DNA of 64,000 nucleotides. Origin: an uncultured Planctomycetales bacterium. Lineage in GTDB: Bacteria > Omnitrophota > Gorgyraeia > Gygaellales > Profunditerraquicolaceae. Positions 2,454-40,790 of this stretch are shown in pieces; position 1 is the stretch's first letter, and every line of letters starts with the position of its first letter. Below the pieces are notes generated by a model. It saw only the letters and a program-made list of their open reading frames with translations. It was not told where the DNA came from and did no database searches. The stretch lies in contig CAZRVK010000006.1 of assembly GCA_964603585.1 (NCBI GenBank), forward strand, positions 23,650-87,649. The letters are read 5' to 3'. Position numbers and translations under genes: made by a program.

Positions 2454-2500
2454 TTTTAATCCGGGAAACTTCACCAATAAGCGTATTGATCGGAGGCATC

Positions 2501-6915: not shown

Positions 6916-8133
6916 ATGCGGAAAATGCTTTCTATGTCTTTGCCTTTATTGGTTTTAGCGGCAGGGTTTTGCGGCTGTACTTTCAATAAAAAAGAAAGGG
7001 AAGAGAAGGTTTTTCAAGGTTATGTCGAGTATTTTAAATCTGTTTACGATGTGATGGAGAAGAATTATTACCTGCCGGTTACTGCGCAGGCCTTTGAGCA
7101 ATTCGTGGCTGAATTCAAGTCTAAAATCTTCGGTCCGCAGGTAAAGGATAAGACCAAGATAGATGATGCGGTTAAGCATGTCGGGACAGGGATCATGGTC
7201 TCTAAACTAAAATCCAGCGAGGATCCTTTTACTAATTTCTTCCCTCCCCAGGTGGTGAAAGAGTTTAAACAGTCTGTATTAGGGTATGCCGGCGATATCG
7301 GAATAGAAGGGTATGTAAAAGACTCGCGTTTCCTGATTACTCAAGTCGAACCGCGTTCGGATGCATTTAAAAAAGGCATCCGGATTAGCGATGAAATATT
7401 GAAGATAAATGATAATCCGGTCGCCGATATCCCGGCAGATTCGATAAAAAAGATATTCTCTCCTGAAATAGAGTCTAAAGTCGTTTTAGAGTTGTTTTCT
7501 CCCTCCACAAACCAGGTTTATACGGCAAGTGTTGCCAGTTCGCAGTATTTTAAGCAGTCGGTTTTCTTGATCCCCACAACAAACGCGGAGGTATCCTGTT
7601 TAAAGATCAAATTCTTTAACGAGGAAACCGGAAATGAAATGCGTACGGCTATCGATGATTTGAATAGGTCAAAGATAAGGAAATTGATCCTTGATCTAAG
7701 GGATAATTCCGGAGGTCCGCCCCTTGCCGCTTGGGATATGGCAGGAGCATTCTTACCGAAAGACCAGAAATTATTTTATTTCCAGAAGCGTAACAGTGAG
7801 CCTCAAGGGCTTGTCAGTACAGAATCCCCTGTTTTGTATGAAGGGACAATGCTGGTTCTGATAAATAAGGGTACCGGTAGTGCCGCGGAGCTTTTTGCCG
7901 GGATTCTGCAGGCGTATAACCGTGCAGGGCTTGTCGGGACTAATTCTGCCGGGCAGGTATTCTTAAAAAGCCTCTTTGACCTTAGCGATGGTGCTACCTT
8001 GGAATTGACTGTTGCTAAAGGTTATCTTTTTAACGGTAATCCTATATCTGCCGAAGGGCTTAAGCCAGATATTGCTATGGCCGATGATAACCAGCTATTA
8101 GCCTCGGTCGTCAGTATTTTTACAAAACAATAA
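6916..8133 (+). CDS. S41 family C-terminal processing peptidase, probable lipoprotein
   Basis: Signal peptide with Cys (LAAGFCGC), PDZ-like region, DLRDNSGG S41 signature; ORF-track start 6796 overlaps rfbH, internal ATG 6916 chosen. Confidence 0.6.
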   Translation: MRKMLSMSLPLLVLAAGFCGCTFNKKEREEKVFQGYVEYFKSVYDVMEKNYYLPVTAQAFEQFVAEFKSKIFGPQVKDKTKIDDAVKHVGTGIMVSKLKSSEDPFTNFFPPQVVKEFKQSVLGYAGDIGIEGYVKDSRFLITQVEPRSDAFKKGIRISDEILKINDNPVADIPADSIKKIFSPEIESKVVLELFSPSTNQVYTASVASSQYFKQSVFLIPTTNAEVSCLKIKFFNEETGNEMRTAIDDLNRSKIRKLILDLRDNSGGPPLAAWDMAGAFLPKDQKLFYFQKRNSEPQGLVSTESPVLYEGTMLVLINKGTGSAAELFAGILQAYNRAGLVGTNSAGQVFLKSLFDLSDGATLELTVAKGYLFNGNPISAEGLKPDIAMADDNQLLASVVSIFTKQ

Positions 8134-8166
8134 GTCAGAGTCTCAATCCGGGTTAAAGTCAGTAAA

Positions 8167-8892
8167 ATGGCTGATTTAAAGTCAAAGAAGATCTTGATGA
8201 TTGTGCCGGCTTATAATGAAGAGCTGAATATTTCCCGGGTGGTAAAGGCGCTTAAGGAAAAGCATCCTTCTTTTTGTGTGTTAGTGGTCGACGATTGTTC
8301 TAACGATAATACTGCTCGGGTTGCCGGTATGTCCGGGGCAGAAGTTGTTTCTCTTGCTTTTAATCTGGGGATTGGAGGCGCGGTTCAGACCGGATTCCAA
8401 TATGCATTGAAACATGATTTTGATGCGGCGGTGCAGTTTGACGGCGACGGTCAGCATGATGTTAATTGTATCTCGGATATTTTAGGCCCGGTACTTGCCG
8501 GCAGGCTTGATATCTGTATCGGCAGCAGGTTTTTATCCAAATCCGGTGCGTTCAAATCATCTTTCTTGCGCAGGATCGGGATAAGGTTTTTTGCTGCCTT
8601 AATCAGCTGTATAATAAGACAGAAACTTACTGATCCTACTTCGGGCAACCGGGCATTTTCAAGAAGGATGATCAGCCTGTTTGCGAAAGATTATCCGGTG
8701 GATTTTCCTGAACCGGAAGGGATAGTAATTGCCAAGCATCATCATGCCTTAATAGGAGAGACTGCGGTAGTTATGCATGCACGCAAGGCTGGAGCTTCAT
8801 CGATCAGTTTCCTTAAATCCGGGTACTATATGTTCAAGGTAACCCTGGCAGTAATCCTTGCAGTTTTAAAGAAAAGGAGAGATATTCCATGA
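8167..8892 (+). CDS. GT2 polyprenyl-phosphate sugar transferase (Dpm1/ArnC-like)
   Basis: N-terminal VPAYNEE...VVDDCS DxD-type GT-A motifs; 241 aa soluble catalytic domain. Confidence 0.7.
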   Translation: MADLKSKKILMIVPAYNEELNISRVVKALKEKHPSFCVLVVDDCSNDNTARVAGMSGAEVVSLAFNLGIGGAVQTGFQYALKHDFDAAVQFDGDGQHDVNCISDILGPVLAGRLDICIGSRFLSKSGAFKSSFLRRIGIRFFAALISCIIRQKLTDPTSGNRAFSRRMISLFAKDYPVDFPEPEGIVIAKHHHALIGETAVVMHARKAGASSISFLKSGYYMFKVTLAVILAVLKKRRDIP

Positions 8893-9260
8893 GGATAAAA
8901 ATACTGGCGATAATGATCTCAATATTTGTATTTTTCCTTGTGATTGACCTTATCCGCAGGGAAAAACTTACTTTTAAATATGCGGTGGTCTGGATCCTTA
9001 TGTGCCTGGCCGGGGTAATTGGTGCTGTCTATGAAGATATCATATTTAAAAGTGCGAGTTTTTTTGGGTTTGAGCTGGCCAGCAATTTTATATTCTTTTT
9101 GCTTGGGGTATTTTTAGTGGTTTTAAGCCTTATGCTTAGTATTTATATTTGCCAGCAGAACCGGCATCTGGAATCGATCGCCCAGAAAATAGGATTGATG
9201 GAACTGGAATTATCCAAGTTGAATGCTGAACGGGCTCAATCTAATCAGAAGAAAGGTTAA
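8889..9260 (+). CDS. Small membrane protein, DUF2304-like, translationally coupled to preceding GT2
   Basis: 123 aa, two TM helices, ATGA overlap with upstream GT2; such small membrane partners commonly follow Dpm1-like GT2 genes. Confidence 0.4.
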   Translation: MRIKILAIMISIFVFFLVIDLIRREKLTFKYAVVWILMCLAGVIGAVYEDIIFKSASFFGFELASNFIFFLLGVFLVVLSLMLSIYICQQNRHLESIAQKIGLMELELSKLNAERAQSNQKKG

Positions 9261-16656: not shown

Positions 16657-18120
16657 ATGAAAGACGAACAGATATATTTCTATATCTTCTCATATTCTTC
16701 GGCCTTGTATTGGCTTGTGATCGCAACATTGTTTTTTGCCGGCTACTTAGTAAGAAAAGGGTTTAAGAAAATTGCCTGTTTTGTTGTTTTGGCGGTAATC
16801 CTAACGGATCTTTTAGCTTATAACCTGCAGGTTTTGCCTTTTGTAACCGGGCTCCGGACAGGGGTTAATTTTAACCAAAAGCAGTTTGACTGGTCTTTGC
16901 CGGAACACCGCAATGAAAACCCTTTTCTGGATAAACGGTTCCGTTATTTTGCCTCCGGGCTCAATAATGACCATACGGCATTTGACGGTACGGCATTCGA
17001 CCGTTTTTCTGCTGCCGGGAACAGGGTCGCTGATGCGAGTGCAATGCTTAAGCAAATCCGGCTTGGCCAATTTGCCTTGCAGAAAGAAATAGATAATTTA
17101 AGTTTATTTGAGCTTATTGCCTTGGGCCAGGACAGCTATGATGATTGGCCTGGTTCCAAGAAAGAGGCTTTCCTGAACTTTATGGAATTGTTATCCGAAG
17201 ACCTTATGTTTCAGCGTAATTTTTACAAGATATTTCCTTCTGGCGAAGGACTATTATTAGCGGCGCGCAGGTTTTTAGCCGAAGGTTATCTGGATTTGAA
17301 TTCCGGCCTGGCCTGGAATACGAAGAAAGATGCGCTGGCATCCCTTGTCAAGCTGATAGATTTTGATCTGGATATCAGTCAGGAAGGATTAGGCCAGGTG
17401 ATAAAAGGCAACAAACCAGATGAAAAATCCCCGATTCTGGCGTATATCCGCAGCCTGGGGTATTTATACAAATCTACTCCGGCAAGCGAGTATTTTATGA
17501 CGCTTTGGGCCAGATACCGTATACCTTCAGCAAATAGTTTCGTAAGGCTTAAGGATTTTGAGAGGATTTACGCAGTTTATACCCGGTCGCTTACTGACCT
17601 GAAGATGACCAGGCAAAACCTGCGGATAAAGAGTGACTTTGGGATTACTGCGCCGGTCATCAATTTTTTTACTTCTGCATATTTTACAGGTCAAGATACA
17701 TATGTCAATGACCTGGAGCAGGACAGGATCACGGATAATCGGCTTTATCTGGAAGGAAAAGATCCCTCAATAAAAACCGAAAACAATCCCAGGAAAGACC
17801 AAAGCGGAAGTTTTTCTTATCTGGTCAAGAAATACACCCCGAATTATTTAAAATTGTTATGTTCATCCAAAACCCCAGGGTTTTTATATTATAGCGATAG
17901 TTTTGATAAATACTGGAAGGCTAAGGTGGATGGAAAAAGAGTAACGATTTACAAGGCAAACGGCCTTTTTAAGGCGGTTAATTTGGCCTCGGGAGAGCAC
18001 ACGGTGGAGTTTATCTACGACCCGGGGTTCTTTCGTTTTTCGATTTGGAGCTATTATTTAACCATATTGGCAGCTGTTGTTTTCTTAACCCTAAGGAGTA
18101 AAATATGGCAAAAGTCCTGA
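16657..18120 (+). CDS. Membrane-anchored protein with large extracytoplasmic domain and C-terminal TM helix (possible C-terminal part of YfhO/GT-C-like protein)
   Basis: N-terminal TM helices, ~400 aa soluble region, terminal TM helix; same frame as 15406..16653. Confidence 0.45.
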   Translation: MKDEQIYFYIFSYSSALYWLVIATLFFAGYLVRKGFKKIACFVVLAVILTDLLAYNLQVLPFVTGLRTGVNFNQKQFDWSLPEHRNENPFLDKRFRYFASGLNNDHTAFDGTAFDRFSAAGNRVADASAMLKQIRLGQFALQKEIDNLSLFELIALGQDSYDDWPGSKKEAFLNFMELLSEDLMFQRNFYKIFPSGEGLLLAARRFLAEGYLDLNSGLAWNTKKDALASLVKLIDFDLDISQEGLGQVIKGNKPDEKSPILAYIRSLGYLYKSTPASEYFMTLWARYRIPSANSFVRLKDFERIYAVYTRSLTDLKMTRQNLRIKSDFGITAPVINFFTSAYFTGQDTYVNDLEQDRITDNRLYLEGKDPSIKTENNPRKDQSGSFSYLVKKYTPNYLKLLCSSKTPGFLYYSDSFDKYWKAKVDGKRVTIYKANGLFKAVNLASGEHTVEFIYDPGFFRFSIWSYYLTILAAVVFLTLRSKIWQKS

Positions 18121-19028
18121 TTATCAAACTGGGATATTCGGAAACGCTGGATAAGGAGATATCCACTACCACCAGCCTTGGAGATGTTTTACGCACTACG
18201 GTGGTCTTGAATTTCTTTAAGAACGATCAGGTAAGCTGGCTGGTAGATGAGAAGGCGTTTCCATTATTGGATGGGAACCCTTATATTGACCGGATACTGG
18301 TTTATAGCCTGACTACGGTTTTACAACTCGAGAAGGAACGGTTTGATACCGTGATAAACCTGGAAAAGGTCCCGGGGATTTGTGCCTTGGCAGATTCGAT
18401 AAGCGCCTGGAGAAGGTTTGGTTTTCGCTTCAATGAAATAACCGGAAAGGCCCAGAGTTATGACGGGGCTGAAGAAGTCCTTGCCTTATGCCTTAGTGAC
18501 GACGAAAAACGTAAAAACCGCAAATTTTGGCAGGAGGCGCTTGCGGATATGATCGGAGAATCCTGGAACGGGCAGAAATATATATTAGGGTACCGGCCTA
18601 AAAGCAGGATCAAATATGATATCGGTTTTAACTGGGCGGTGGGGGATAAATGGTCGAATAAGGCCTGGCCTAAAGAATATTGGAAAAAGCTGGAAAATAT
18701 CCTAAAAAACAGGTATTCTATATCCTGGCAGCAAGGTTTAAATAATCTATATGAGTATATGGATTGGATTAATTCCTGCCGTCTTATCATTACCAATGAC
18801 AGCCTGGGGATGCATTTAGGGATCGCGCTTAGCCGTCATCTGATCGCGTTATTTGGGCCAAGTTCTTCCAAAGAAGTTTACCTTTACGATAAAGGCAGGA
18901 TCTTAGTCCCGGCAAAAGGGTGTGAACGCATTCCTTGCCTGCAAAGCGAATGCTCGAAATCGCGGCCTTGTATGGAATATATAACTCCCGAACGGGTAAA
19001 AAAAGAAGTATTAAGGATATTAAAATAA
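18105..19028 (+). CDS. GT9 family glycosyltransferase (ADP-heptose:LPS heptosyltransferase-like)
   Basis: N-terminal KVLIIKLG...LGDVLRTT motif characteristic of heptosyltransferases; 307 aa. Confidence 0.6.
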   Translation: MAKVLIIKLGYSETLDKEISTTTSLGDVLRTTVVLNFFKNDQVSWLVDEKAFPLLDGNPYIDRILVYSLTTVLQLEKERFDTVINLEKVPGICALADSISAWRRFGFRFNEITGKAQSYDGAEEVLALCLSDDEKRKNRKFWQEALADMIGESWNGQKYILGYRPKSRIKYDIGFNWAVGDKWSNKAWPKEYWKKLENILKNRYSISWQQGLNNLYEYMDWINSCRLIITNDSLGMHLGIALSRHLIALFGPSSSKEVYLYDKGRILVPAKGCERIPCLQSECSKSRPCMEYITPERVKKEVLRILK

Positions 19029-20093
19029 ATGGATGATTTCCGGATCGATTCACAAAAAATAACCCATCATATCGGGGCGTTAAACAAATGGCTTAAAACG
19101 GGAGATGTTTATCCGATTTACGCGGAGATTTCTCCTTCTGGCACCTGCAACCACCGGTGCATATTTTGCGCTTTGGATTACCTGGAGTATAAGCCAAAAT
19201 TCATCGATACTCCGGCGGTAAAAAGATTTATTGCCGATGCCGCCAAGAAAGGTTTGCGCAGTATCATGTTTGCAGGAGAGGGGGAACCTCTTTTACATCC
19301 TGGTTTGATGGAGATGGTATCTTTTGCCCGCACTCATCTCGTGGATACGGCAATTACTACTAACGGGGTGTTGCTGGATAAGAATAACCTGTCGGTCATA
19401 TTGAATGATGCGAGTTGGCTTAGGATAAGTTTAAATGCGGCAACCCCTGAAAGTTATGCCCGTATCCATAGGGCGCGCCCGGAGGATTTCTTGCGAGTTT
19501 TGCATAATCTTCGTCTGGCAGTTTCCATGCGGCGCGCCAAGAATTACCAGTGTACTATCGGGGCCCAGATCCTTTTATTGGGTCAGAATATCCCGGATGC
19601 GGGGATACTGGCAAAGCTATGCCGCCAGATCGGGTTGGATTATCTGATCATCAAGCCTTATTCACAGCATCCGTTCAGTAAGAACCGTTTAAGTAAAACC
19701 GTGGATTACCGCAAACTTTTGATCCTGGAAAAGGAATTAGCGAAATTCAGCACTAAGGATTTTAAAGTGATCTTCAGACGGCATACAATGCAGAAGATAA
19801 TCTCCGGTCGTAATTACAAACAGTGTTATGCGCTTCCCTTTTGGACATATATCAGCGCTAATGCTGATGTCTATGCCTGCAGTGCTTTTTTAGGGGACAA
19901 ACGTTTTTGCCTCGGCAACATTACCCGGGAACGTTTCTTTCGGATATGGAATGGCAGAAGGCGCAAAAAACTCCTTAGGATGATGGCAAACACCTGGGAT
20001 ATAAATAATTGCCGGCAGGTTTGCCGGATGGATGAGATAAACCGTTATTTATGGGAGTTAAAGAACCCTCCCAGGCATGTCAATTTCATTTAA
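19029..20093 (+). CDS. Radical SAM enzyme (paralog 1) with conserved C-terminal WxLKxPPxHxNF motif
   Basis: CNHRCIFC (CxxxCxxC), GEGEP; C-terminal Cys cluster and LWELKNPPRHVNFI tail shared with 23403..24479. Confidence 0.7.
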   Translation: MDDFRIDSQKITHHIGALNKWLKTGDVYPIYAEISPSGTCNHRCIFCALDYLEYKPKFIDTPAVKRFIADAAKKGLRSIMFAGEGEPLLHPGLMEMVSFARTHLVDTAITTNGVLLDKNNLSVILNDASWLRISLNAATPESYARIHRARPEDFLRVLHNLRLAVSMRRAKNYQCTIGAQILLLGQNIPDAGILAKLCRQIGLDYLIIKPYSQHPFSKNRLSKTVDYRKLLILEKELAKFSTKDFKVIFRRHTMQKIISGRNYKQCYALPFWTYISANADVYACSAFLGDKRFCLGNITRERFFRIWNGRRRKKLLRMMANTWDINNCRQVCRMDEINRYLWELKNPPRHVNFI

Positions 20094-20862
20094 TAAAATG
20101 GCTGAAAAGAAATTTTTTCTGGCAGTAATCATGCCGGCGCTCAATGAAGAAAAAAACATCCGCCTGGCGGTGGGCAATGTTTTAAAGGCTTTTGACGATT
20201 TTCATATCGAAGGCGAAATCATTGTGGTAAATGATGGTTCAAAAGATAAAACCGGGGAGGTCGTCGAGTCGATGATGGCGGAGGAGCCAAGGATAAAAAT
20301 GATTAGGCATGAAAGGCCTTTGGGGATCGGGGCTTCTTTCTGGGATGGGGTGGATAATACCCAGGCGGATATCGTTGTAACTTTACCGGGGGATAATGAA
20401 AATGACCCCTGGGAGATATTCCGTTACTATCCTTTGCTTGAGCATGTGGATATCGTGATCCCCTTTATTTTCAATAAGGAGGCGCGTTCTTTGTTCAGGA
20501 ACGGCGTTTCTTATCTTTACCGGTTTATTATCAATACTACGTTTTTAGTCAATTTCAATTATACCAATGGCACGATCCTTTTCCGCCGCTTACTGCTAAA
20601 AGAACTGGGCCATCGCAGTCTAAGTTTTTTCTTCCAGACCGATATTTTGATCCGAACGGTAAAAAAAGGGTATTTGTTTGCCGAAGTGCCTTATCGGCTG
20701 GGGATTAGAAAAGACGGGGTTTCCAAGGCATTGTCTTTTCCGTCTTTTTTGCAAGTAGTAAAAGGGTATGTGCGCCTGGTAAAAGATTATTATTTTCAGA
20801 AAAATAACGGTTCTTCGACTATTTTTAGCAGTGGTTCGCAAACTGCATTACGCAGGGGTTAG
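20077..20862 (+). CDS. GT2 polyprenyl-phosphate sugar transferase (Dpm1-like)
   Basis: VIMPALNEE...VVNDGSKDKT GT-A motifs. Confidence 0.7.
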   Translation: MSISFNKMAEKKFFLAVIMPALNEEKNIRLAVGNVLKAFDDFHIEGEIIVVNDGSKDKTGEVVESMMAEEPRIKMIRHERPLGIGASFWDGVDNTQADIVVTLPGDNENDPWEIFRYYPLLEHVDIVIPFIFNKEARSLFRNGVSYLYRFIINTTFLVNFNYTNGTILFRRLLLKELGHRSLSFFFQTDILIRTVKKGYLFAEVPYRLGIRKDGVSKALSFPSFLQVVKGYVRLVKDYYFQKNNGSSTIFSSGSQTALRRG

Positions 20863-20866
20863 CAGT

Positions 20867-21694
20867 ATGTTTAGACGAAAAAAAGATGAACTTGAGAAAT
20901 ATGCCAGCCAGGCCAGAAGATTGATTATTGAAGTGGCTTGTAAGTCAAGAACTGCGCATGTGGGTTCGGCTCTGTCCTGTGTCGATATTTTAACCGCGCT
21001 TTATTTTCATGTATTGGATATAAATCCCCGCGCCTGGAAAAAAAGGGATATTTTGGTCTTAAGTAAAGGGCATGCTGCACTGGCATTGTATTCGATCCTG
21101 ACGGTTAAAGGGTTAATGAAGAAGGATGCCCTTTTGGGTTATTTGCAGGATAAGGGCAGTTTGCCGGCACATTTGGACAAGGTTACGAATAAATGGATCG
21201 AGGTATCCTGCGGTTCATTAGGTCATGGGTTCAATATGGCTTTAGGCCTGGCATATGGTTACAAGCTCAAAGGTATTAAACGCCGGGTAGTCGCTGTTAT
21301 TGGCGATGGAGAAACGCAAGAAGGGTCGGTTTGGGAAGGCGCATTGTTTGCCAGCCATCTTGGCATAGATAATTTTACCGCAGTGATCGATTATAATAAT
21401 TTACAGGGTTATGGCCGTCCGAGGGAGATCTGCCATTATGAGCCGGTAGCCGGTAAATGGAGGGCTTTTGGCTGGGAGGTAGATAAGGTCAATGGGCATG
21501 ATCATTATGCCCTGATTTCGGCCTTGGAGAAAAAACGTATTCAAGGCAAGCCAAGGGTGATTATTGCCGATACCACGAAAGGCAAGGGGGTGGATTTTAT
21601 GGAGGATCAGCTTAAATGGCATTATTTCATTGTTACCGATGAGCTGAAAGAAAAGGCGATGCAGCAATTATGCGCACCCCGGGGGATACGGTGA
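20867..21694 (+). CDS. Transketolase N-terminal (TPP-binding) subunit
   Basis: HVGSALSCVDILTALYF, GH, GSLGHG, VIGDGE motifs of split transketolase N-section; ATG 20867 just after upstream stop with AGGGG RBS. Confidence 0.8.
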   Translation: MFRRKKDELEKYASQARRLIIEVACKSRTAHVGSALSCVDILTALYFHVLDINPRAWKKRDILVLSKGHAALALYSILTVKGLMKKDALLGYLQDKGSLPAHLDKVTNKWIEVSCGSLGHGFNMALGLAYGYKLKGIKRRVVAVIGDGETQEGSVWEGALFASHLGIDNFTAVIDYNNLQGYGRPREICHYEPVAGKWRAFGWEVDKVNGHDHYALISALEKKRIQGKPRVIIADTTKGKGVDFMEDQLKWHYFIVTDELKEKAMQQLCAPRGIR

Positions 21695-22593
21695 GAAACA
21701 GTTTAGTCGATAAAATATACCAGCATGCCTGTAAAAACAGGAAAATATTCCTGATTACCGGAGATGCGGGGTTCGGGGTGCTGGATGAATTTAAAAAACG
21801 GTTTGGCCGGCGTTTCTTGAACCTGGGGATCGCTGAACAGAATATGATCGGGTTTGCCTCCGGGCTTTCCCTTGCAGGATACAAGGTTTTTGTTTATAAT
21901 ATTGTCCCGTTTGTTTTATACCGTTGTTTTGAACAGGTAAGAAACGATATTTGTTATCAGGATCTGCCGGTCACCTTGGTGGGTATTGGCAGCGGTGTTT
22001 CCTATGCCCCGGGCGGGGTAACGCATTATTCGGTTGAGGATGTTTCCCTGGCAAGGGCCTTGCCTAACCTTGTTATACTTTCTCCGGCTGATCCACAGGA
22101 GGCGCAGGCCTGTGTGGAATATGCGCTGAAAAGTAAATCACCTGTGTATATCCGTATCGCGAAAAATGGTGAACCAGCGATACATAAAAAAAAGATAAAA
22201 AGTGTCATTGAGCCGATTGTGGTAGGCGGCGGAGAACGAGTTGCGGTTTTATTCCATGGTTCTGTATCCTCTGATGTGATGCGTGCTGTGTCAGGCCTGG
22301 CGAGAAAACCGAGAGTGATTTCAGTCCCCATGCTCCAGCCTTTGAACTTTGCTGCGCTTAAGGCCTCCTTAAAAGGGATAGGTACCATTATTACGGTAGA
22401 GGAACATTTCTTGGAAGGTGGACTGGGAAGTATTATCGCGGAATGGATAGTCAGGGACAGGCTTAATTTTCGCCTAAAGAAACTGGGGATAAAGAATGAG
22501 TTTATCCATGCCATTCGCGATAATCCCGGGATGAGGCAGTTGTATGGAATTTCCAGCAGGCAGATTGCGGCAGTAATACGCGGGTCATTTTAA
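21670..22593 (+). CDS. Transketolase C-terminal (pyrimidine-binding) subunit
   Basis: FLNLGIAEQNMIGFASGLSLAG, DICYQDLPVTLVG motifs; overlaps N-subunit by ~25 nt. Confidence 0.75.
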   Translation: MRTPGDTVRNSLVDKIYQHACKNRKIFLITGDAGFGVLDEFKKRFGRRFLNLGIAEQNMIGFASGLSLAGYKVFVYNIVPFVLYRCFEQVRNDICYQDLPVTLVGIGSGVSYAPGGVTHYSVEDVSLARALPNLVILSPADPQEAQACVEYALKSKSPVYIRIAKNGEPAIHKKKIKSVIEPIVVGGGERVAVLFHGSVSSDVMRAVSGLARKPRVISVPMLQPLNFAALKASLKGIGTIITVEEHFLEGGLGSIIAEWIVRDRLNFRLKKLGIKNEFIHAIRDNPGMRQLYGISSRQIAAVIRGSF

Positions 22594-22613
22594 TAGGTAA
22601 AAAAGGGGTGAAA

Positions 22614-23384
22614 ATGTCAGATATCTCATTGCGCCATGAAAATGAAAAGTTGCAGAAAGAAGCGTTGGAGGCATTATTTCAAAGCAGTGGTATGAGCGAT
22701 TTTGAACGGTTCAGGAATTTTACGGTTTTTACCCCTCGGTATAATCTGGCGCGGTTTCTGCTGCATTATGAACTGTTTAAAAAGGTCTATGAGCTTCCGG
22801 GTGTGATCGTGGATTTAGGAGTATATCAGGGGGCATCGACGTTTACCTGGGCAAAACTTTGCGAGATCTTTTGCCCTACGGATGTGCGCAAAGTGGTTTA
22901 TGCCTTTGATACGTTTGCAGGTTTTCCCTCTTTAGCCAAGGAGGATGGCGGGCAGAGTAAGAAGGATGACCGTGTTGTTGGAGGATTTTATACGGGTGAA
23001 GCTATTGAGCGGGATCTGAAGCTGGCCCAGGAAGCGATGCGCCCGGATAAGCATATCCGGCATATCAACCGTATAGAATTTATAAAAGGTGATGCCATAA
23101 AAACCATACCTGCATTTGTCAAAGAAAAAGGCGCAGGGTTAAAGGTTGCTTTATTAAATATAGATTTCGATCTTTACGAGCCGACGAAGGTTGCTTTGGA
23201 AAACTTTGTACCTTTGATGGTACGAGGTGGGATAATTATTCTTGATGAATATGCACTGGAAACATTTGGCGGAGAGACCAAGGCTATAGACGAATATTTT
23301 AAAAAGGCGTTCGGCCAGGTGCCTAAAATCAAGAAATTCGGCTGGCACAGTGTTCCTTCGGGATATATTGAGGTTGATTGGTAA
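22614..23384 (+). CDS. TylF/MycF-family class I SAM-dependent (sugar) O-methyltransferase
   Basis: VDLGVYQGAST nucleotide-binding motif, DTFAGFP, NIDFDLYEPT typical of macrocin-O-methyltransferase family. Confidence 0.6.
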   Translation: MSDISLRHENEKLQKEALEALFQSSGMSDFERFRNFTVFTPRYNLARFLLHYELFKKVYELPGVIVDLGVYQGASTFTWAKLCEIFCPTDVRKVVYAFDTFAGFPSLAKEDGGQSKKDDRVVGGFYTGEAIERDLKLAQEAMRPDKHIRHINRIEFIKGDAIKTIPAFVKEKGAGLKVALLNIDFDLYEPTKVALENFVPLMVRGGIIILDEYALETFGGETKAIDEYFKKAFGQVPKIKKFGWHSVPSGYIEVDW

Positions 23385-23402: not shown

Positions 23403-24479
23403 ATGGATAAATATATGATGGAAGGCCATAAGCTTTTTTGGCATTTAGATCGGCTCCGGGCTTGGCAGAAGGAAGAGAAAATAGTTCCTTTGCATATGGA
23501 TATCGGCATATCTAAAGGATGCACTATCGGGTGTGTTTATTGTTACGGCGTTTTTCAGGGCAGGATCGGCCCGCAAGGCAAATTCATCCCTAAAGATGCG
23601 CTTTTACGGTTCATGAATGATGCGGCAGATTTAGGAGTCAAGGCGATCTCTATAACCGGAGAAGCCGAACCGACCATGAACCCCCACCTTTATGATGCGG
23701 TGGTAGTAGGCGCTAAAGCAGGTCTTGATTTAGGTTTAGCTACCTGGGGAGGTATGATCCAAGAAGACAGGATCACCGATCTGGCAAATAATCTGACCTG
23801 GATCAGGTTTAATATTAGTGCCGCTGCACCCGACAGCTACCAGAAGATCCACCGCACGACTAAAGAAAATTTCCATAAGGTCATCTCTAATATTGAGAAG
23901 TTAGTGCGTATTAAACGGCAAAATGATTTGAACATTACCATCGGCCTGCAAATGGTGACTATGCCATGGTATGCCGCGGAGTCCTTAAAGCTGGCAAAGT
24001 TAGGTAAAGATCTCGGGGTGGATTATCTGGAGATCAAACATTGTAGTGAGACTACTTCCGGGGACCTGGGGGTAAGGTTTGAAGAGTATCATAAGGTCGC
24101 GGATATCCTGAAAGAGGCAGAGAAGTATTCCGGCGGGCAATATGATGTGATCGTCAGGTGGAAGAAAATATTGCAAGGCAAGAAACGTAATTATGACCGT
24201 TGTTATTGTGCCGGTAATTTTATGCTTCGGATGTCAGGGGATGGTTCGGTTTATCCTTGTGCCCAGTTCTTTGACCTAAGAAGCGATGAATTTAAGGTCG
24301 GCAATATTACTGAACAGTCATTTAAGGATATTTTATATGGAGCGCGTTATTCGGAAGTCTTAAAACGGATACAACAGCTGGATGTGCATAATGAATGCTG
24401 CAGCGGATGCAAGGAGGATTCGATCAATGAATTCCTTTGGACGCTTAAACATCCTCCGCAACATTTGAATTTTGTTTAA
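23403..24479 (+). CDS. Radical SAM enzyme (paralog 2) with conserved C-terminal WxLKxPPxHxNF motif
   Basis: CTIGCVYC (CxxxCxxC), GEAEP; C-terminal Cys cluster and LWTLKHPPQHLNFV tail. Confidence 0.7.
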   Translation: MDKYMMEGHKLFWHLDRLRAWQKEEKIVPLHMDIGISKGCTIGCVYCYGVFQGRIGPQGKFIPKDALLRFMNDAADLGVKAISITGEAEPTMNPHLYDAVVVGAKAGLDLGLATWGGMIQEDRITDLANNLTWIRFNISAAAPDSYQKIHRTTKENFHKVISNIEKLVRIKRQNDLNITIGLQMVTMPWYAAESLKLAKLGKDLGVDYLEIKHCSETTSGDLGVRFEEYHKVADILKEAEKYSGGQYDVIVRWKKILQGKKRNYDRCYCAGNFMLRMSGDGSVYPCAQFFDLRSDEFKVGNITEQSFKDILYGARYSEVLKRIQQLDVHNECCSGCKEDSINEFLWTLKHPPQHLNFV

Positions 24480-24485
24480 AATCCA

Positions 24486-24983
24486 ATGAAAATATTATTT
24501 GCCGGGTCTTGTTTATTCATTCTTAGTTGTTTGATACATGTTATAATCTGGAAAATACGCCTGCCAAAAGGGCAGACTAAGACCTTAGCAAAGATATTTG
24601 CCCTGGTTTTGACCGCAGGGATAATATTTTTCGCCGTAGATACTGGCCGCGGTTTCAGTTGGCTGGATATTGTGCATATTTCTATATTCTATGCCGTGCT
24701 TGCTTTGGTGTACTTGAATACCTATTCGGCTATTGAAGTGGACAGTCCGACATTAGTAATTGTTTCGCTTATCCATAATGCGCAAAAAAAAGGTTTGTTA
24801 AAAATAGAATTGGAGAATGCCTTAAGTGATGATGTCTTGATCGCTCCGCGCGTAAAAGACCTGGAGGATGCCAGGCTTGTATCTTTTGATGGCGTTAGAT
24901 ATAAGCTTACTCCGACCGGGTTAAGGTTTGTGAGTATTTTTATCTTTTGGCGGAAATTATTGAATGCCGGATTAGGGGGGTAA
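24486..24983 (+). CDS. Membrane protein with C-terminal soluble domain (paralog A)
   Basis: 3 predicted TM helices then DGVRYKLTPTGLRFVSIFIFWRKLL; similar to next ORF. Confidence 0.4.
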   Translation: MKILFAGSCLFILSCLIHVIIWKIRLPKGQTKTLAKIFALVLTAGIIFFAVDTGRGFSWLDIVHISIFYAVLALVYLNTYSAIEVDSPTLVIVSLIHNAQKKGLLKIELENALSDDVLIAPRVKDLEDARLVSFDGVRYKLTPTGLRFVSIFIFWRKLLNAGLGG

Positions 24984-24989
24984 TTTCAT

Positions 24990-25514
24990 TTGAAACCGGA
25001 ATATTCCCAGGTCTTAGTCCCGTTTATTGGGTTGTTCTTTAATATATTCACGCAATTAGCATCATTGCGTTTATTCCCCTGGATAGGCCTGTTAAAGTCA
25101 GAATTTTGCGGCTTTATCCTGGGGATGCTGGTGTTTTTATCCATCCAATCGGCATTTATCTTCTGCAGGCGATCTTGTATAGATAGCCCTTTAGGGATTT
25201 TTATCGTGAACTCGATCATCTATTTATCCCTGGCGTACATGTATTTTAATTTTATAAATCTCGGGGAAACTGCACGCCGGATACGCCTGTTGAGTGAGTT
25301 ATACAATTGCCGTGTCGGTTTGACTTATCCGGAGATTATCCAGCGTTATAATGCAAAAGAAGTTTTAAACCGCAGGGTTTTGCGTTTGTTGAATAATGGA
25401 CAGATAGTGTATAGGGATGGCAGGTATTTTACCGCCAATCCTTCTGTTTTAATCATTTCTCAAGGTATATTTTGGATGAAGCAGTTTTTGTTAGGCAGAA
25501 AGCTTTCAAGGTGA
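24990..25514 (+). CDS. Membrane protein with C-terminal soluble domain (paralog B)
   Basis: TTG start; TM helices then DGRYFTANPSVLIISQGIFWMKQFLL matching previous ORF. Confidence 0.35.
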   Translation: MKPEYSQVLVPFIGLFFNIFTQLASLRLFPWIGLLKSEFCGFILGMLVFLSIQSAFIFCRRSCIDSPLGIFIVNSIIYLSLAYMYFNFINLGETARRIRLLSELYNCRVGLTYPEIIQRYNAKEVLNRRVLRLLNNGQIVYRDGRYFTANPSVLIISQGIFWMKQFLLGRKLSR

Positions 25515-25518
25515 AGTC

Positions 25519-26205
25519 ATGTCAGCCGAAAACATAGTTTTAGCGGTTAAATGTGCCCCGGAAGAAAGGCTGTTGTCTTATGCCACGCGTGCGGGGATTC
25601 CGGCGGTTGAGTTGTACCTTTGCGGCGAGACTCTTAATCAAGCTGATGAGGTAGCCGCCTTATGTAAGGATTTTCATTTTCGCTATAGTATGCATGCCCC
25701 AAACGATGCTTATGAGCCAAAGAAACTTTCTTTTTTAGCCGGGGCAATTTCTGCCGAGGTGGTAGTGGCGCATAATATCTTCTGGGAAGATGAATGGAAA
25801 GAGATGATCTCCTGTTTTAAGGGGATCCCGGTAAAGCTTTGTGTAGAGAATATTACAACCGCGCACGAACCTTTGAAATTCATGCGCCGTTATGGCCTGG
25901 GATGCTGCCTGGACCTGGAGCATTTGCAGCTTGAGTGCGCCGGAGTTTATGAGGATGAATTCCTGCGTTTAATGAAAATCGCCTCATATGTTCATATGAC
26001 GGGTTATAAATACCCCTCGGAACTTTGGCATACCCATATACATCATTTACCCCGGCATAATGTTTATCTTCTTGACCTTTTATTGAAGGCAGGGTATTCC
26101 GGGTTTCTGGTGAGTGAAGCGAAAGTGGAAATGCAAAGTTATGATGAATTTAGCAAATTGCATGCTTTCTTTGAGTCATGGAAAGCCAAACATAAGGAAG
26201 GATAA
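25519..26205 (+). CDS. Xylose-isomerase-like TIM-barrel protein (sugar phosphate isomerase/epimerase family)
   Basis: Conserved His/Glu/Asp pattern (HAP, VENI, LDLEH, HMTG) of AP-endonuclease-2/xylose isomerase-like fold; weak. Confidence 0.4.
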   Translation: MSAENIVLAVKCAPEERLLSYATRAGIPAVELYLCGETLNQADEVAALCKDFHFRYSMHAPNDAYEPKKLSFLAGAISAEVVVAHNIFWEDEWKEMISCFKGIPVKLCVENITTAHEPLKFMRRYGLGCCLDLEHLQLECAGVYEDEFLRLMKIASYVHMTGYKYPSELWHTHIHHLPRHNVYLLDLLLKAGYSGFLVSEAKVEMQSYDEFSKLHAFFESWKAKHKEG

Positions 26206-26207
26206 GA

Positions 26208-27056
26208 TTGAAACCTATTAATATCCCGGATACTTATAATTATATCGGAGTTTTTATCACCTTTGCCTGTAATTTGAGGTGCAGTTATTGTATTAATAAT
26301 TTTGAAGGCAATTTGGAAAACCGCAAGATGATCTCCGGTGAAGATTGGGCCAGGTTTTTAAACCGGATTAATTCGCGGGATGATCTGCCGGTTACCTTGC
26401 AGGGCGGAGAACCGAGCTTGCATAAGGATTTTATTTATATTATCAATAATATCAAGCCCGATCTGCACATAGATATCCTGACAAACCTTAGTTTTGACAT
26501 TGATGAATTCATGAGGCAGGTTGACCCCAAGAGGCTTGTGCGCAATTCCCCTTATGCCTGTATCCGCGTGAGTTATCATCCGGAAACCATGGATTTAAAG
26601 CAGACTATGGAGAAGGTTTTGGTCATGATGGATAAGGGTTTTAGTATCGGGATTTGGAGTGTCATGTATCCGGATTACCGTGAGCGTATTTTTGAAGCGC
26701 AGGATATCTGCCGGCAAAAGGGGATAGATTTCCGGCTGAAGGAATTTTTAGGGGAATATAACGGTAAACTGTATGGCACATATAAATATAAGGATGCCTG
26801 CAGTAAGAAAACGGCCAAAACCGTGTCCTGTAAGGCAAGCGAGCTGCTGATTGACCCTGCGGGAACGGTTTTTCGTTGTCATCATGATGTCTATAGCAAT
26901 AAAAGCCCGATCGGCAGCCTTAGTGACGGTGATTTTCAGATCGAAGATGAGTATCGAGATTGCCAGTATTATGGTTTTTGTAATCCCTGTGATATTAAGG
27001 TTAAGACCAATCGGCTGCAGGAATATGGGCATACTTCGGTAGATATAAAGTTTTAG
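26208..27056 (+). CDS. Radical SAM enzyme with C-terminal Cys-rich auxiliary-cluster region
   Basis: TTG start with AAGGAAGGA RBS; CNLRCSYC, QGGEP; C-terminal C...CHHD...CQYYGFCNPC. Confidence 0.6.
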   Translation: MKPINIPDTYNYIGVFITFACNLRCSYCINNFEGNLENRKMISGEDWARFLNRINSRDDLPVTLQGGEPSLHKDFIYIINNIKPDLHIDILTNLSFDIDEFMRQVDPKRLVRNSPYACIRVSYHPETMDLKQTMEKVLVMMDKGFSIGIWSVMYPDYRERIFEAQDICRQKGIDFRLKEFLGEYNGKLYGTYKYKDACSKKTAKTVSCKASELLIDPAGTVFRCHHDVYSNKSPIGSLSDGDFQIEDEYRDCQYYGFCNPCDIKVKTNRLQEYGHTSVDIKF

Positions 27057-27099: not shown

Positions 27100-27885
27100 A
27101 TGAAGACAGATATATTTTATTTTTCCGGTACGGGTAATTCCTTAAAAGTAGCCAGGGATATTCTGCAGCAGGTAAAAGATGGACAGGTTATAGCTATCCC
27201 TAAAGTGATATCTCAAGATTCGATAACTACGAATGCCGATAGGGTAGGGATCGTTTTTCCGGTATATATGTTTGGGGCACCTTTGATTGTAGTGGATTTT
27301 CTTAGGAAACTTAAACTTAACCAGGGGCAGTATATTTTTGCCGTAGTAACCTATGGAGGTTTGGCTGGAGGCACGTTGCAGCAGATTGAGCGCGAGCTTG
27401 CCAGGAAGGGGTTAAAACTGTCAGCCGGATTTGGCATAGCCATGCCAGGCAATTATACCCCGCTTTATGGCGCTAAACCATTAGCGGTGCAAAACAAGAT
27501 GTTTGAAAGAGAATATTCAAAGGTTAAGGCTATTTCCGATATTATCGAGGCCGGAAGGCCGTATCCTGTAGAAAAAGGGAATTTTCTTATAAACCTGATA
27601 TTTTCCGGATTATTGTATAACAGTTGTTCATCATCGATACCAAAGATGGACAGATCATTTTGGGTAGAAAATACCTGTACCGGCTGTCAGGTATGCGTAA
27701 AAGTCTGCCCGGTGGGAAATATTAAGCTTGCAGACGCAAAACCTGTCTGGCTGGGCAGGTGCCAGCAATGCCTGGCTTGTCTGCACTGGTGTCCCGAGGA
27801 AGCAATTCAGTTCGGCAGGAAAACGATTGGACGAAAACGTTACCGGATGCCGCAAATACAATTAAATGATCTTTTAAAAGATTGA
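27100..27885 (+). CDS. Flavodoxin-like domain fused to 2x[4Fe-4S] ferredoxin domain
   Basis: N-terminal FYFSGTGNS flavodoxin motif; C-terminal CTGCQVCVKVCP and CQQCLACLHWCP. Confidence 0.65.
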   Translation: MKTDIFYFSGTGNSLKVARDILQQVKDGQVIAIPKVISQDSITTNADRVGIVFPVYMFGAPLIVVDFLRKLKLNQGQYIFAVVTYGGLAGGTLQQIERELARKGLKLSAGFGIAMPGNYTPLYGAKPLAVQNKMFEREYSKVKAISDIIEAGRPYPVEKGNFLINLIFSGLLYNSCSSSIPKMDRSFWVENTCTGCQVCVKVCPVGNIKLADAKPVWLGRCQQCLACLHWCPEEAIQFGRKTIGRKRYRMPQIQLNDLLKD

Positions 27886-39350: not shown

Positions 39351-40790
39351 ATGCCAAAGACTGATAGTGAAATTACACAAATGTTGGCTTACGTCCAAAA
39401 CAGGTTTGCCGGTTTTGGTGTAAGACTTCCTGCTTTAGATAGTACTTTGGCTGGTTCTAATGATCAAAATGAAGATGTCGGACGGGCTGTGAGCCTGATC
39501 CAGGCCTTCGGGAACAGTGTTTTTATTTCCGAAAGCACCCTTCAGGCAGACAGGTTAGCTGATCAAACATTGATTCGCCTTAATGTTGATGGCGTAAACC
39601 GCCAGGCTGTTGTGCTTGATATGAAGCGGTTAGTCGAAGCCGATAAAGAAAATGCCGGGGATAATTTCCAAAGTATTATTGAATCCTTACAAAAAGCCGA
39701 AGGCCATGCCTGTTTGATAATATTTAATTTAGAGAGGATCGTGGGAAATCAGCCTCTTGAGGGAATGTTTATTCCCTTTTTAAAGAAAAAGCCGGTACCG
39801 ATGATTGGGGTTACTGACCTTAAAGGTTTTTCTCAATTGGAGTCCCGCACAGATATTGCCGGGTCACTGCAATTTATCCTTTATGGTCATGAAGGGAAAA
39901 GGAGTAAACGTGATAAATCCGTGCTTATCATTGGTGCCAGTTCATTTTTTGGCCATGCCCTTTATAGCCTGTTTATCCGGGAATATAAGGCTGTTCGTGG
40001 CACGGGTTTTAATAAAGCAGGGCATTTTGGCTTTGATAAATTAGACGTTACTTCCGAAGATGAAGTAAGGGATTATTTCTTTCAGCATCCTGGGTTTGAT
40101 ATAGTAGCTTATGTTGCCGGTGAAGCAGATGCGGATTTATCCGAGACCAATCATGACAGAGCGCGGTTGCTTAACACTGAAGCAGTCGAAAGATTATCCA
40201 GGTGGGCTAAAGGGTGTAAATTTGTTTATACATCATCCGAGTATGTCTTTGACGGCAGTTCCGGGCCGTATGCCTCCGGATCAGCCGCTCGGCCGATTAA
40301 TTATTACGGGCAAACTAAGCTTGAAGGGGAACAGATTGCTTTAAAGTCTTTTGCAAACGCCCTGATTGTGCGGCTTGGGGCATTGTATGGTTATAACGGC
40401 CCAAATGATAAAAAGACCACTGTAAGTAAGCTGATCGCCGGTTTAGACAAGACAGTTCCTTTAGAAGCCGATAATCTTCAGATAAAGCATCCTATTTTGC
40501 TGGAGGATGCCTGCAGGTCATTATTGAAGCTTCTGGATTATGGGTTGACAGGCATATATCAATTAAATGGCCCGGAGGGGCTGAATAAAAAGGAAATGGC
40601 GGAACAGATCATTGCGGTCCGGCATGAAATTACCGGGCGTGTGTTTTCATACCCTGTTATCGGTATTCCTCAACCAGGGATCGCAGAAAAACCTTTGAAT
40701 ACCCATATGGTGAATGTGGATACACCAAGGTTATTTAAGGATGGTGTCAGGTTTTTAATGCAGAAACAGGCAGCATTCAAAGGAAATTAA
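39351..40790 (+). CDS. Two-domain protein: unknown N-terminal domain (~190 aa) fused to RmlD-like sugar-nucleotide reductase/epimerase domain
   Basis: C-terminal half has SVLIIGASSFFG Rossmann and RmlD substrate-binding-like region; N-terminal half has no motif I recognise. Confidence 0.5.
   Translation: MPKTDSEITQMLAYVQNRFAGFGVRLPALDSTLAGSNDQNEDVGRAVSLIQAFGNSVFISESTLQADRLADQTLIRLNVDGVNRQAVVLDMKRLVEADKENAGDNFQSIIESLQKAEGHACLIIFNLERIVGNQPLEGMFIPFLKKKPVPMIGVTDLKGFSQLESRTDIAGSLQFILYGHEGKRSKRDKSVLIIGASSFFGHALYSLFIREYKAVRGTGFNKAGHFGFDKLDVTSEDEVRDYFFQHPGFDIVAYVAGEADADLSETNHDRARLLNTEAVERLSRWAKGCKFVYTSSEYVFDGSSGPYASGSAARPINYYGQTKLEGEQIALKSFANALIVRLGALYGYNGPNDKKTTVSKLIAGLDKTVPLEADNLQIKHPILLEDACRSLLKLLDYGLTGIYQLNGPEGLNKKEMAEQIIAVRHEITGRVFSYPVIGIPQPGIAEKPLNTHMVNVDTPRLFKDGVRFLMQKQAAFKGN

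Follow-up and report, generated by a model that had tools for sequence, protein, structure and literature searches.

A predicted non-canonical split transketolase and its radical-SAM/SPASM partners in a bacterial glycan locus

What does a transketolase do inside a glycan locus? Transketolases are usually treated as enzymes of central metabolism. The stretch of DNA analysed here (the window; 64 kb of contig CAZRVK010000006.1) nevertheless carries, at 20867-22593, two adjacent genes for the N- and C-terminal halves of such an enzyme, TK-N and TK-C, set among genes for glycosyltransferases, a sugar O-methyltransferase and enzymes of the radical S-adenosylmethionine (radical-SAM) type. The pair retains the residues for thiamine diphosphate (ThDP) chemistry, has lost most of those that hold a sugar phosphate, and recurs across the 83 loci analysed, mostly beside radical-SAM genes with a SPASM domain. 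With moderate confidence it is read as a dedicated ThDP-dependent transferase of a two-carbon (C2, "glycolaldehyde") unit, acting on a sugar carbonyl made within the same cassette and thereby either branching the sugar or extending its chain.

The gene pair and its active site

The two genes overlap by four bases.

20867-21694, + strand: TK-N, 275 aa, ATG start; ThDP/diphosphate-binding (PP) subunit, matching Transketolase_N and NF004559
21691-22593, + strand: TK-C, 300 aa from a GTG start; pyrimidine-binding plus C-terminal-domain subunit, with an alternative in-frame ATG at 21670

Separate N- and C-terminal transketolase subunits had been reported at this place by a first-pass annotation made from the letters alone; its outer coordinates are correct, and Pfam and NCBIfam bear out the domains. 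TK-N matches Pfam Transketolase_N at 1.6e-29 (DXP_synthase_N, 5.7e-13; E1_dh, 1.8e-5) and is covered by the NCBIfam transketolase model NF004559 at model positions 14-282, that is, by its first half. The TK-C open reading frame (ORF), taken from 21670 to 22593, contains the Pfam domains Transket_pyr (2e-27) and Transketolase_C (7.7e-12). Since the NCBI gene model of TK-C is 300 aa long, its start is placed at GTG 21691, which shares bases with the TGA stop of TK-N as GTGA. This arrangement is typical for translationally coupled subunits, and such coupling is predicted for TK-N and TK-C. Proteins identical to both (P0001 for TK-N, P0121 for TK-C) are present in public data. With domain matches far above chance, the two genes are evidently a real, intact two-gene split transketolase.

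All three domains are present, as are the GDG...N metal/diphosphate motif and the cofactor-activating Glu, which places the pair in the transketolase superfamily. It falls short of the canonical equivalog: NF004559 gives 227.1 bits for TK-N and 124.4 bits for TK-C, a sum of 351.5 against a cut-off of 488, and every other NCBIfam transketolase model scores the pair lower. Nor is it of the E1 type, as models of the alpha subunit of pyruvate dehydrogenase (PDH) E1 give TK-N 35 bits against 227 for transketolase, and PDH E1 beta models give TK-C 30 bits against 124-128 for transketolase and DXS models. The YerE-like architecture is likewise absent; the pair lacks the TPP_enzyme_N, M and C domains that a second ThDP enzyme of the window, at 657-2453, possesses.

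The active site was examined in an alignment of the window proteins with the 119 closest database relatives of each and E. coli TktA, to which segments of human transketolase, E. coli DXS and ChTK, the split transketolase of C. hydrogenoformans, were added from the PDB search output. The TktA reference sequence agreed with 15 of 15 published residue numbers; residue numbering is that of E. coli. On the donor and cofactor side conservation is complete. TK-N retains the equivalents of His26, His66, His100, Gly114, Leu116, Asp155, Gly156, Glu160 and Asn185, and TK-C those of Glu411, Phe434 and His473, each in 119 of 119 relatives as well. The equivalent of His261 lies within a conserved KWHY that aligns to the WHG of human transketolase and ChTK, and the donor-side catalytic histidines (His26, His66, His100, His261, His473) are thus all present.

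The substrate side is different throughout the clade. In substrate complexes of the yeast and E. coli enzymes, the substrate phosphate is bound by four residues, Arg358, Ser385, His461 and Arg520, and Asp469 recognises the acceptor through its C2 hydroxyl. The His461 position is Gly, and the Arg520 position Lys, in the window protein and in all 119 relatives. The Glu468 position is Pro in 117 of 119 relatives and the Gln474 position Tyr in 118. The motif SADLxxS, which bears Ser385, is replaced in the clade by GDAG[FY]G[VI] (GDAGFGV in the window). Among the four phosphate-binding residues only Arg358 is probably retained, as the invariant Arg2 of the clade. At the position of the acceptor-reading Asp469 the window protein has Gly; relatives have Gln (96), Gly (11), Met (5) or Leu (3). 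The replacements point to a remodelled, probably enlarged, acceptor pocket.

The same pattern extends well beyond the close relatives. A search of 1.84 billion representative proteins yielded, at 50% clustering, 139 nearest full-length representatives, which are 33-47% identical to TK-C and each score above ChTK. Glu411 and His473 are found in all of them and Gly at the His461 position in 138, and no Asp occurs at the Asp469 position among the 119 relatives, the 83 locus copies or the 139 representatives. Because of these last two features, the window pair is assigned, from its residues, to one branch of a large and diverse family of non-canonical split transketolases.

The retained histidines also bear on the donor. 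DXS enzymes, which are ThDP-dependent as well, consistently have Phe at the His100 position (PMC7661550). As His100 is kept in the window protein, a hydroxylated C2 donor of the transketolase type is favoured over pyruvate.

The cassette in the window and in other genomes

The linkage of the pair to two radical-SAM/SPASM enzymes and to a methyltransferase or a ketoreductase of the nucleoside diphosphate (NDP)-sugar type is strict and ancient. The members and neighbours of the cassette in the window are listed here.

18105-19028, + strand: GT9-like (heptosyltransferase-family) glycosyltransferase; Glyco_transf_9 at 1.7e-12, C-terminal part only
19029-20093, + strand: radical-SAM/SPASM enzyme A, the upstream partner; Radical_SAM at 2.5e-17, SPASM at 1.9e-7, CX3CX2C at residue 40
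20077-20862, + strand: GT2 glycosyltransferase of the polyprenyl-phosphate sugar synthase type; Glycos_transf_2 at 1.2e-20, with sub-threshold NCBIfam matches including ArnC, PgfS, PpgS and AglJ
22608-23384, + strand: TylF-family sugar O-methyltransferase; TylF at 1.3e-11, Methyltransf_24 at 3.2e-9
23403-24479, + strand: radical-SAM/SPASM enzyme B, the downstream partner; Radical_SAM at 6e-15, SPASM at 1e-8
24486-25514, + strand: two paralogous small membrane proteins (165 and 174 aa) with N-terminal transmembrane segments
25519-26205, + strand: xylose-isomerase-like TIM-barrel protein (weak); AP_endonuc_2 at 4e-5, under the Pfam cut-off
26208-27056, + strand: small radical-SAM enzyme, rSAM6; Radical_SAM at 7.8e-10, Fer4_12 at 1.8e-5
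27100-27885, + strand: EFR1-family flavodoxin/ferredoxin; NF038196 at 266.7 bits (cut-off 75), Flavodoxin_5 and Fer4 domains

The neighbours named at the outset, a GT2 gene, a sugar O-methyltransferase and flanking radical-SAM paralogs, were thus all found in their places. Between 18105 and 27056 the genes are tightly spaced, at distances between small overlaps and 18 bases, so that the block reads as a single operon. The EFR1-family protein that follows is the probable electron donor for the radical-SAM enzymes.

Other genomes were sampled by a scan of one genome per species, which gave 190 relatives and from which 80 loci were fetched; in the 83 loci analysed, ORFs were called, compared with the window proteins and clustered all-against-all. 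Close relatives of the pair (60-72% identity) come from Thermodesulfovibrionales/Nitrospirota, Brocadiales, Nitrospinota, Omnitrophota and Elusimicrobiota. The loci further cover Planctomycetota, Desulfobacterota, Rhodocyclaceae, Chloroflexota, Bacteroidota, Saccharibacteria and Campylobacterota, for a total of more than 10 phyla. Among the carriers are the cultured Citrifermentans bremense R1 and Helicobacter cinaedi CCUG 18818, Sulfurimonas, and a complete Halarcobacter genome.

The recurring gene order is an optional small radical-SAM gene and an optional GT9-like gene, followed by radical-SAM/SPASM enzyme A, TK-N, TK-C, an optional class-I methyltransferase or RmlD-like reductase, and radical-SAM/SPASM enzyme B. 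Radical-SAM/SPASM genes occur in 74 of the 83 loci, in 152 copies. Upstream copies are closest to enzyme A (19029) in 61 of 65 cases and downstream copies to enzyme B (23403) in 42 of 84, a distribution that marks the two, as far as protein comparison goes, as distinct positional orthologue groups. Of the 55 loci that extend at least 7 kb in both directions, 52 contain a radical-SAM/SPASM gene and 46 at least two; 44 carry a methyltransferase of cluster c3 or an RmlD-like reductase, 46 carry at least one of GT9, HldE-like and GmhA-like genes, 31 a short-chain dehydrogenase/reductase (SDR) of cluster c4, and 28 a B12-radical-SAM enzyme.

The gene directly 3' of TK-C is most often a class-I methyltransferase (c3, 33 cases) or an RmlD-like protein (c8, 15 cases). 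The TylF arrangement of the window is shared by locus L003. A TylF-transketolase link was considered as the conserved core and rejected, as only 5 of the 83 loci have a TylF homologue and one of the other two gene types is the usual occupant of the slot. GT9 homologues are present in 34 of the 83 loci, mostly directly upstream of the cassette, and rSAM6 homologues in 33, typically adjoining the GT9 gene; homologues of the GT2 at 20077 occur in 18-20 related loci, and the xylose-isomerase-like gene type also follows the cassette in L087.

NUDIX domains are a further associate of the pair. NUDIX::TK-N gene fusions were found in five protein clusters (for instance L087 10001-11221 and L088 6286-7527), and a stand-alone NUDIX gene lies immediately upstream of TK-N in L005, L007, L008, L012 and L017, which are among the nearest relatives of the window. 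These fusions and neighbours indicate chemistry on NDP-linked compounds.

Several loci hold more than one transketolase. L002 (ENA ERZ25039480 contig_43869), syntenic with the window from the S41 peptidase at 6796 through the GT9 gene, has at 19028-20647 a second and more distant non-canonical pair, with the motifs AIGGG...GSAGITHH and RLGKD, whose C-subunit gene is broken by an apparent frameshift. A second pair or subunit gene is also present in L005, L028, L040 and L041. The H. cinaedi CCUG 18818 locus (L082, NZ_DS990392.1) carries at 7612-9069, directly upstream of the split pair, an extra 485 aa fusion of Transketolase_N and Transket_pyr that lacks the C-terminal domain; this locus thus has two transketolase-like enzymes.

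With acceptor and phosphate residues replaced, and with a sugar-modification cassette around the pair in 83 loci, the original suggestion that the pair belongs to the glycan locus and is no ordinary transketolase is upheld.

Proposed function and competing explanations

How might such an enzyme work? TK-N and TK-C would form a predicted heterotetrameric ThDP enzyme dedicated to an unusual sugar of a cell-surface glycan. A dihydroxyethyl ("active glycolaldehyde") unit would be loaded onto ThDP from hydroxypyruvate or a ketose donor. Radical-SAM/SPASM enzyme A would generate an aldehyde or keto group on a derivatised sugar, a role assigned by analogy with BtrN and anSME, without support from specific similarity. 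The C2 unit would then be added to that carbonyl, the substrate being not an ordinary sugar phosphate but most likely a nucleotide-linked (heptose-type) or otherwise derivatised sugar. An aldehyde acceptor would result in chain extension, for example of a heptose to a C9 sugar, and a ketone acceptor in a hydroxyacetyl branch. The new ketol would be O-methylated (by TylF, in the window) or reduced (by the RmlD-like protein, in relatives), after which enzyme B would process it in a second radical step, and the GT2, YfhO-like and GT9-like proteins would install the finished sugar. In this model the donor, the acceptor, the sequence of reactions and the part played by either radical-SAM enzyme are inferred. 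Its most specific form is advanced tentatively: that a hydroxyl on a nucleotide-activated sugar, often of heptose type, is converted to a carbonyl by a radical-SAM/SPASM enzyme, that the remodelled transketolase adds glycolaldehyde to the product, and that the whole is an undescribed, widely transferred anaerobic cassette.

Several observations weigh against C2 transfer onto a cassette-made carbonyl. We know of no characterised member of the clade, nor of any characterised sugar-modifying transketolase of any kind. Ketones are much less favoured by transketolases than aldehydes, which makes the keto-sugar branching version chemically less natural. Compared with solved structures and NCBIfam, the radical-SAM/SPASM partners gave weak generic matches and no functional assignment; enzyme B matches SkfB, anSME, MoaA and CteB, all weakly at E about 1e-3, a tungsten-cofactor maturase is among the generic matches, and in these comparisons neither partner resembled BtrN or another known sugar dehydrogenase in any informative way. 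HldE-like, GmhA-like and NUDIX genes are absent from the window itself. Finally, the probable retention of Arg358, together with Lys in place of Arg520, could serve an anionic group (phosphate or diphosphate), and phosphorylated substrates could then be accommodated.

The alternative that survives best, although it is still unlikely, is that the transketolase supplies a precursor, making a ketose or ketose phosphate before nucleotide activation rather than working on a nucleotide sugar. The product would be sedoheptulose-7-phosphate, or a longer or modified analogue built on a free aldose released by the NUDIX hydrolase, which would then pass to the GmhA-like, HldE-like and GT9 proteins. Directly upstream of the cassette, a SIS/GmhA-like gene (c14), an HldE-like gene (c9) and an extra adenylyltransferase gene (c17) are found in many loci, among them L005, L006, L020, L043 and L048. 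The HldE-like proteins have their kinase and adenylyltransferase domains in reversed order, and the c9 and c14 proteins have HldE and GmhA as their best NCBIfam matches, under the equivalog cut-offs, which suggests a non-standard substrate for such a route. The GT9 genes of 34 loci, NUDIX fusions and neighbours that could free an aldose acceptor, and lost phosphate-binding residues that fit a non-phosphorylated aldose all agree with precursor supply. Yet HldE-like genes occur in 24 and GmhA-like genes in 13 of the 83 loci, and neither in the window; it is with the two radical-SAM/SPASM enzymes, and with a methyltransferase or NDP-sugar-type reductase, that the pair is strictly associated; and a rebuilt pocket would be needless for ordinary sedoheptulose-7-phosphate.

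The HldE-like/GmhA-like sub-operon upstream of the cassette is headed in eight loci (L005, L006, L020, L025, L033, L037, L043, L048) by a gene of the "GSU2086 family" (cluster c20; NF052581, 394 bits against a cut-off of 250), whose product bears a weak likeness to deoxyhypusine synthase/ArgZ-type Rossmann folds.

Less probable again is transfer of an acetyl (hydroxyethyl) branch, the alternative nearest to the first-pass annotation, in which pyruvate would be decarboxylated, as by AviB1/B2, YerE or DXS, and its C2 unit placed on an NDP-4-keto (or 3-keto) deoxysugar to give a tertiary-alcohol branched sugar. Such a role draws on the resemblance of TK-C to DXS, which after 6YAJ provides its best solved matches (94 bits, against 71 bits for human transketolase) and whose REGSGM aligns with GDAGFGV. 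Known branch ketones, moreover, are often later reduced or methylated (PMC12247030), which fits the reductase or methyltransferase that follows TK-C. Against this, all 119 relatives have His where DXS has Phe at the His100 position, TK-N is by its Pfam values clearly of the transketolase type, and acceptance of a ketone is unproven for any transketolase. A 4,6-dehydratase, moreover, is not strictly linked to the cassette, the c4 SDR being found in only 31 of the 55 well-flanked loci.

A housekeeping role is unlikely: that the pair is an everyday transketolase of the pentose-phosphate or Calvin pathway, lying in a glycan locus by chance, is very improbable, for although split genes are the normal transketolase of some anaerobes, the C. 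hydrogenoformans enzyme being active (PMC7661550), and the 64 kb window holds no other transketolase, the canonical substrate residues are replaced clade-wide, the summed subunit score lies under the equivalog cut-off, some glycan loci carry two pairs (L002, L005, L028, L040, L041), and the distribution over more than 10 phyla is patchy and cassette-bound.

If the tentative nucleotide-sugar form of the main model is correct, many phyla would carry in their surface glycans either sugars of higher carbon number (for example C9 from heptose) or sugars with a hydroxyacetyl branch. No earlier transketolase would have been shown to use a non-phosphorylated or nucleotide-linked sugar, and the cassette would be the first partnership of radical-SAM and ThDP enzymes in glycan biosynthesis. 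The case for transketolases in sugar tailoring has so far rested on a few uncharacterised Streptomyces genes. To these is added a large and sharply defined subfamily, in which ThDP chemistry is kept, the sugar-phosphate pocket is lost and a conserved operon with two radical-SAM enzymes spans more than 10 phyla. The defined genes and culturable carriers (C. bremense and the pathogen H. cinaedi) make sugar-building by transketolases directly testable. Sugar structures as yet unknown are predicted for environmental and host-associated bacteria, and for biocatalysis the family would offer a natural transketolase scaffold for non-phosphorylated, bulky acceptors.

The wider window and comparison with known systems

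The second ThDP enzyme of the window lies outside the cassette and belongs to its context.

657-2453, + strand: ThDP enzyme of the acetolactate-synthase/YerE-like (decarboxylase) superfamily; TPP_enzyme_N, M and C domains

Among solved structures it is closest to 8RPH (418 bits), ahead of acetolactate synthase (242 bits) and 5AHK (236 bits), and it scores under all acetolactate synthase equivalog cut-offs. 8RPH is deposited as "thiamine pyrophosphate-binding protein" and is presumably the YerE-like enzyme JanthE. Homologues of the 657 gene occur in only 3 of the 83 cassette loci, so that this gene is independent of the cassette. The claim that the locus has two independent ThDP systems for C-C bond formation holds, one enzyme being of the decarboxylase and the other of the transketolase superfamily. 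Functional coupling of the two, as in phosphonothrixin biosynthesis, was considered and rejected in view of the same 3 of 83 loci and the 18 kb that separate them in the window.

Downstream of the 657 gene, 2486-4000 encodes a 504 aa protein with a NeuB-family (sialic/pseudaminic acid synthase-like) domain and a C-terminal cupin, under the NeuB and PseI equivalog cut-offs. It adjoins the YerE-like enzyme, an epimerase and a DegT aminotransferase, and this region may be a separate sub-pathway of the ulosonic-acid type.

Seven radical-SAM genes, an unusually dense set, lie between 9223 and 32547 (starting at 9223, 19029, 23403, 26208, 28930, 29891 and 31042). The first is HxsC4-like (120 bits, under the cut-off); that at 29891 is of the SPASM/twitch type, and that at 31042 is B12-binding, with BchE, HpnJ and P-methyltransferase as best matches. 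Together with the EFR1-family protein, the seven genes suggest an anaerobic, radical-based sugar-tailoring pathway that reaches well beyond the transketolase step.

Two GT2 proteins of the type that makes polyprenyl-phosphate sugars, one with a DUF2304 partner, are encoded in the segments 8167-9260, 16657-18120 and 20077-20862, along with a membrane protein that is YfhO-like. This arrangement is reminiscent of periplasmic glycosylation systems with three components (the GtrB/YfhO and PpgS/DUF2304 types). The two small membrane proteins of 24486-25514 gave no match in Pfam or NCBIfam; in 9 and 7 related loci they are again found together, frequently next to a GT2 gene, and they could be a flippase-like or adaptor component. 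Farther along, 39351-40790 encodes an RmlD-like reductase with an N-terminal extension of about 190 aa that has no family match; behind it come genes for a class-I phosphomannose isomerase (40795) and for a class-III aminotransferase (41921). From about 43 kb on the genes are of housekeeping type (cation efflux, NikR, OprB porin, CbiMQO, ThyX, the glycine cleavage system and lipoate genes).

All genes of the window are on the + strand, including every ORF of at least 120 aa with a family match, at a G+C content of about 44%. As the GC skew is also positive in all 2 kb windows along it (0.09-0.22), the stretch lies wholly on a leading strand. Rfam and promoter/terminator scans of the window gave nothing informative, with no Rfam family even upstream of gcvT or cbiM.

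Among known systems, ChTK (6YAK/6YAJ) is the best solved relative of both subunits, at 205 bits for TK-N (6YAK_A, 8.6e-60, 41% identity) and 149 bits for TK-C (6YAJ, 1.7e-42, 31% identity). The two enzymes share the same ThDP, metal and donor-side residues. They part at the substrate: ChTK keeps the canonical His461, Glu468, Asp469, His473, Gln474 and Arg520 and the motif DADLSKS (its Arg358 region lies outside the aligned part), whereas the window has Gly461, Gly469, Lys520 and GDAGFGV. ChTK-type enzymes are alpha2beta2; in the window the two genes are adjacent, with a GTGA overlap, and a tetramer of that kind is predicted for their products. Beyond ChTK, the PDB search places TK-N nearest human transketolase and TK-C nearest DXS. 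DXS shares the Glu and the His473-type residues with the pair, and TK-C scores as well against it as against classical transketolases; DXS differs, however, in being a single polypeptide, in having Phe at the His100 position, and in keeping the Asp and Arg equivalents that the pair has lost.

The literature search found no paper on a transketolase/radical-SAM cassette in glycan loci. The nearest proposals concern the miharamycin and amipurimycin clusters and 13 further Streptomyces clusters, whose split-gene transketolases are proposed to put a hydroxyacetyl branch on keto sugars; C2 transfer onto keto sugars, which had been taken as established when the locus was first annotated, has for transketolases only been proposed and never shown in vitro (PMC12247030). 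The miharamycin/amipurimycin enzymes, likened here by description, are also split and lie in sugar-tailoring clusters, and both a hydroxylated C2 transfer and a prior carbonyl-forming oxidation have been proposed for them. They belong to antibiotic clusters of Streptomyces, whereas the window type belongs to surface-glycan loci of mostly anaerobic diderms and would have radical-SAM/SPASM enzymes as its oxidising partners.

AviB1/B2, by contrast, is an ill-fitting precedent, although the first-pass annotation had invoked it. AviB1/B2 is of the alpha-keto acid dehydrogenase (E1) type, and TK-N falls on the other side of that division (Transketolase_N over E1_dh). Both the YerE-like and the AviB1/B2/KbDH types are ThDP enzymes that add C2 or longer units to NDP-keto sugars, and the branch ketone is later reduced or methylated; they fall into other ThDP superfamilies, and their donors are 2-keto acids such as pyruvate. 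YerE-like enzymes branch sugars of lipopolysaccharide, and E1-type enzymes of the aldgamycin and kibdelomycin pathways branch antibiotic sugars (PMC12247030).

A last comparison is with SqwGH, the 6-deoxy-6-sulfofructose transketolase, which is encoded by split genes and is specialised for a substrate that is not a sugar phosphate (PMC11659671). By its description this enzyme is catabolic, transferring C2 units from sulfosugars to glyceraldehyde-3-phosphate, and it lies outside glycan loci and lacks radical-SAM partners. SqwGH thus demonstrates that split transketolases can be recruited to substrates other than sugar phosphates.

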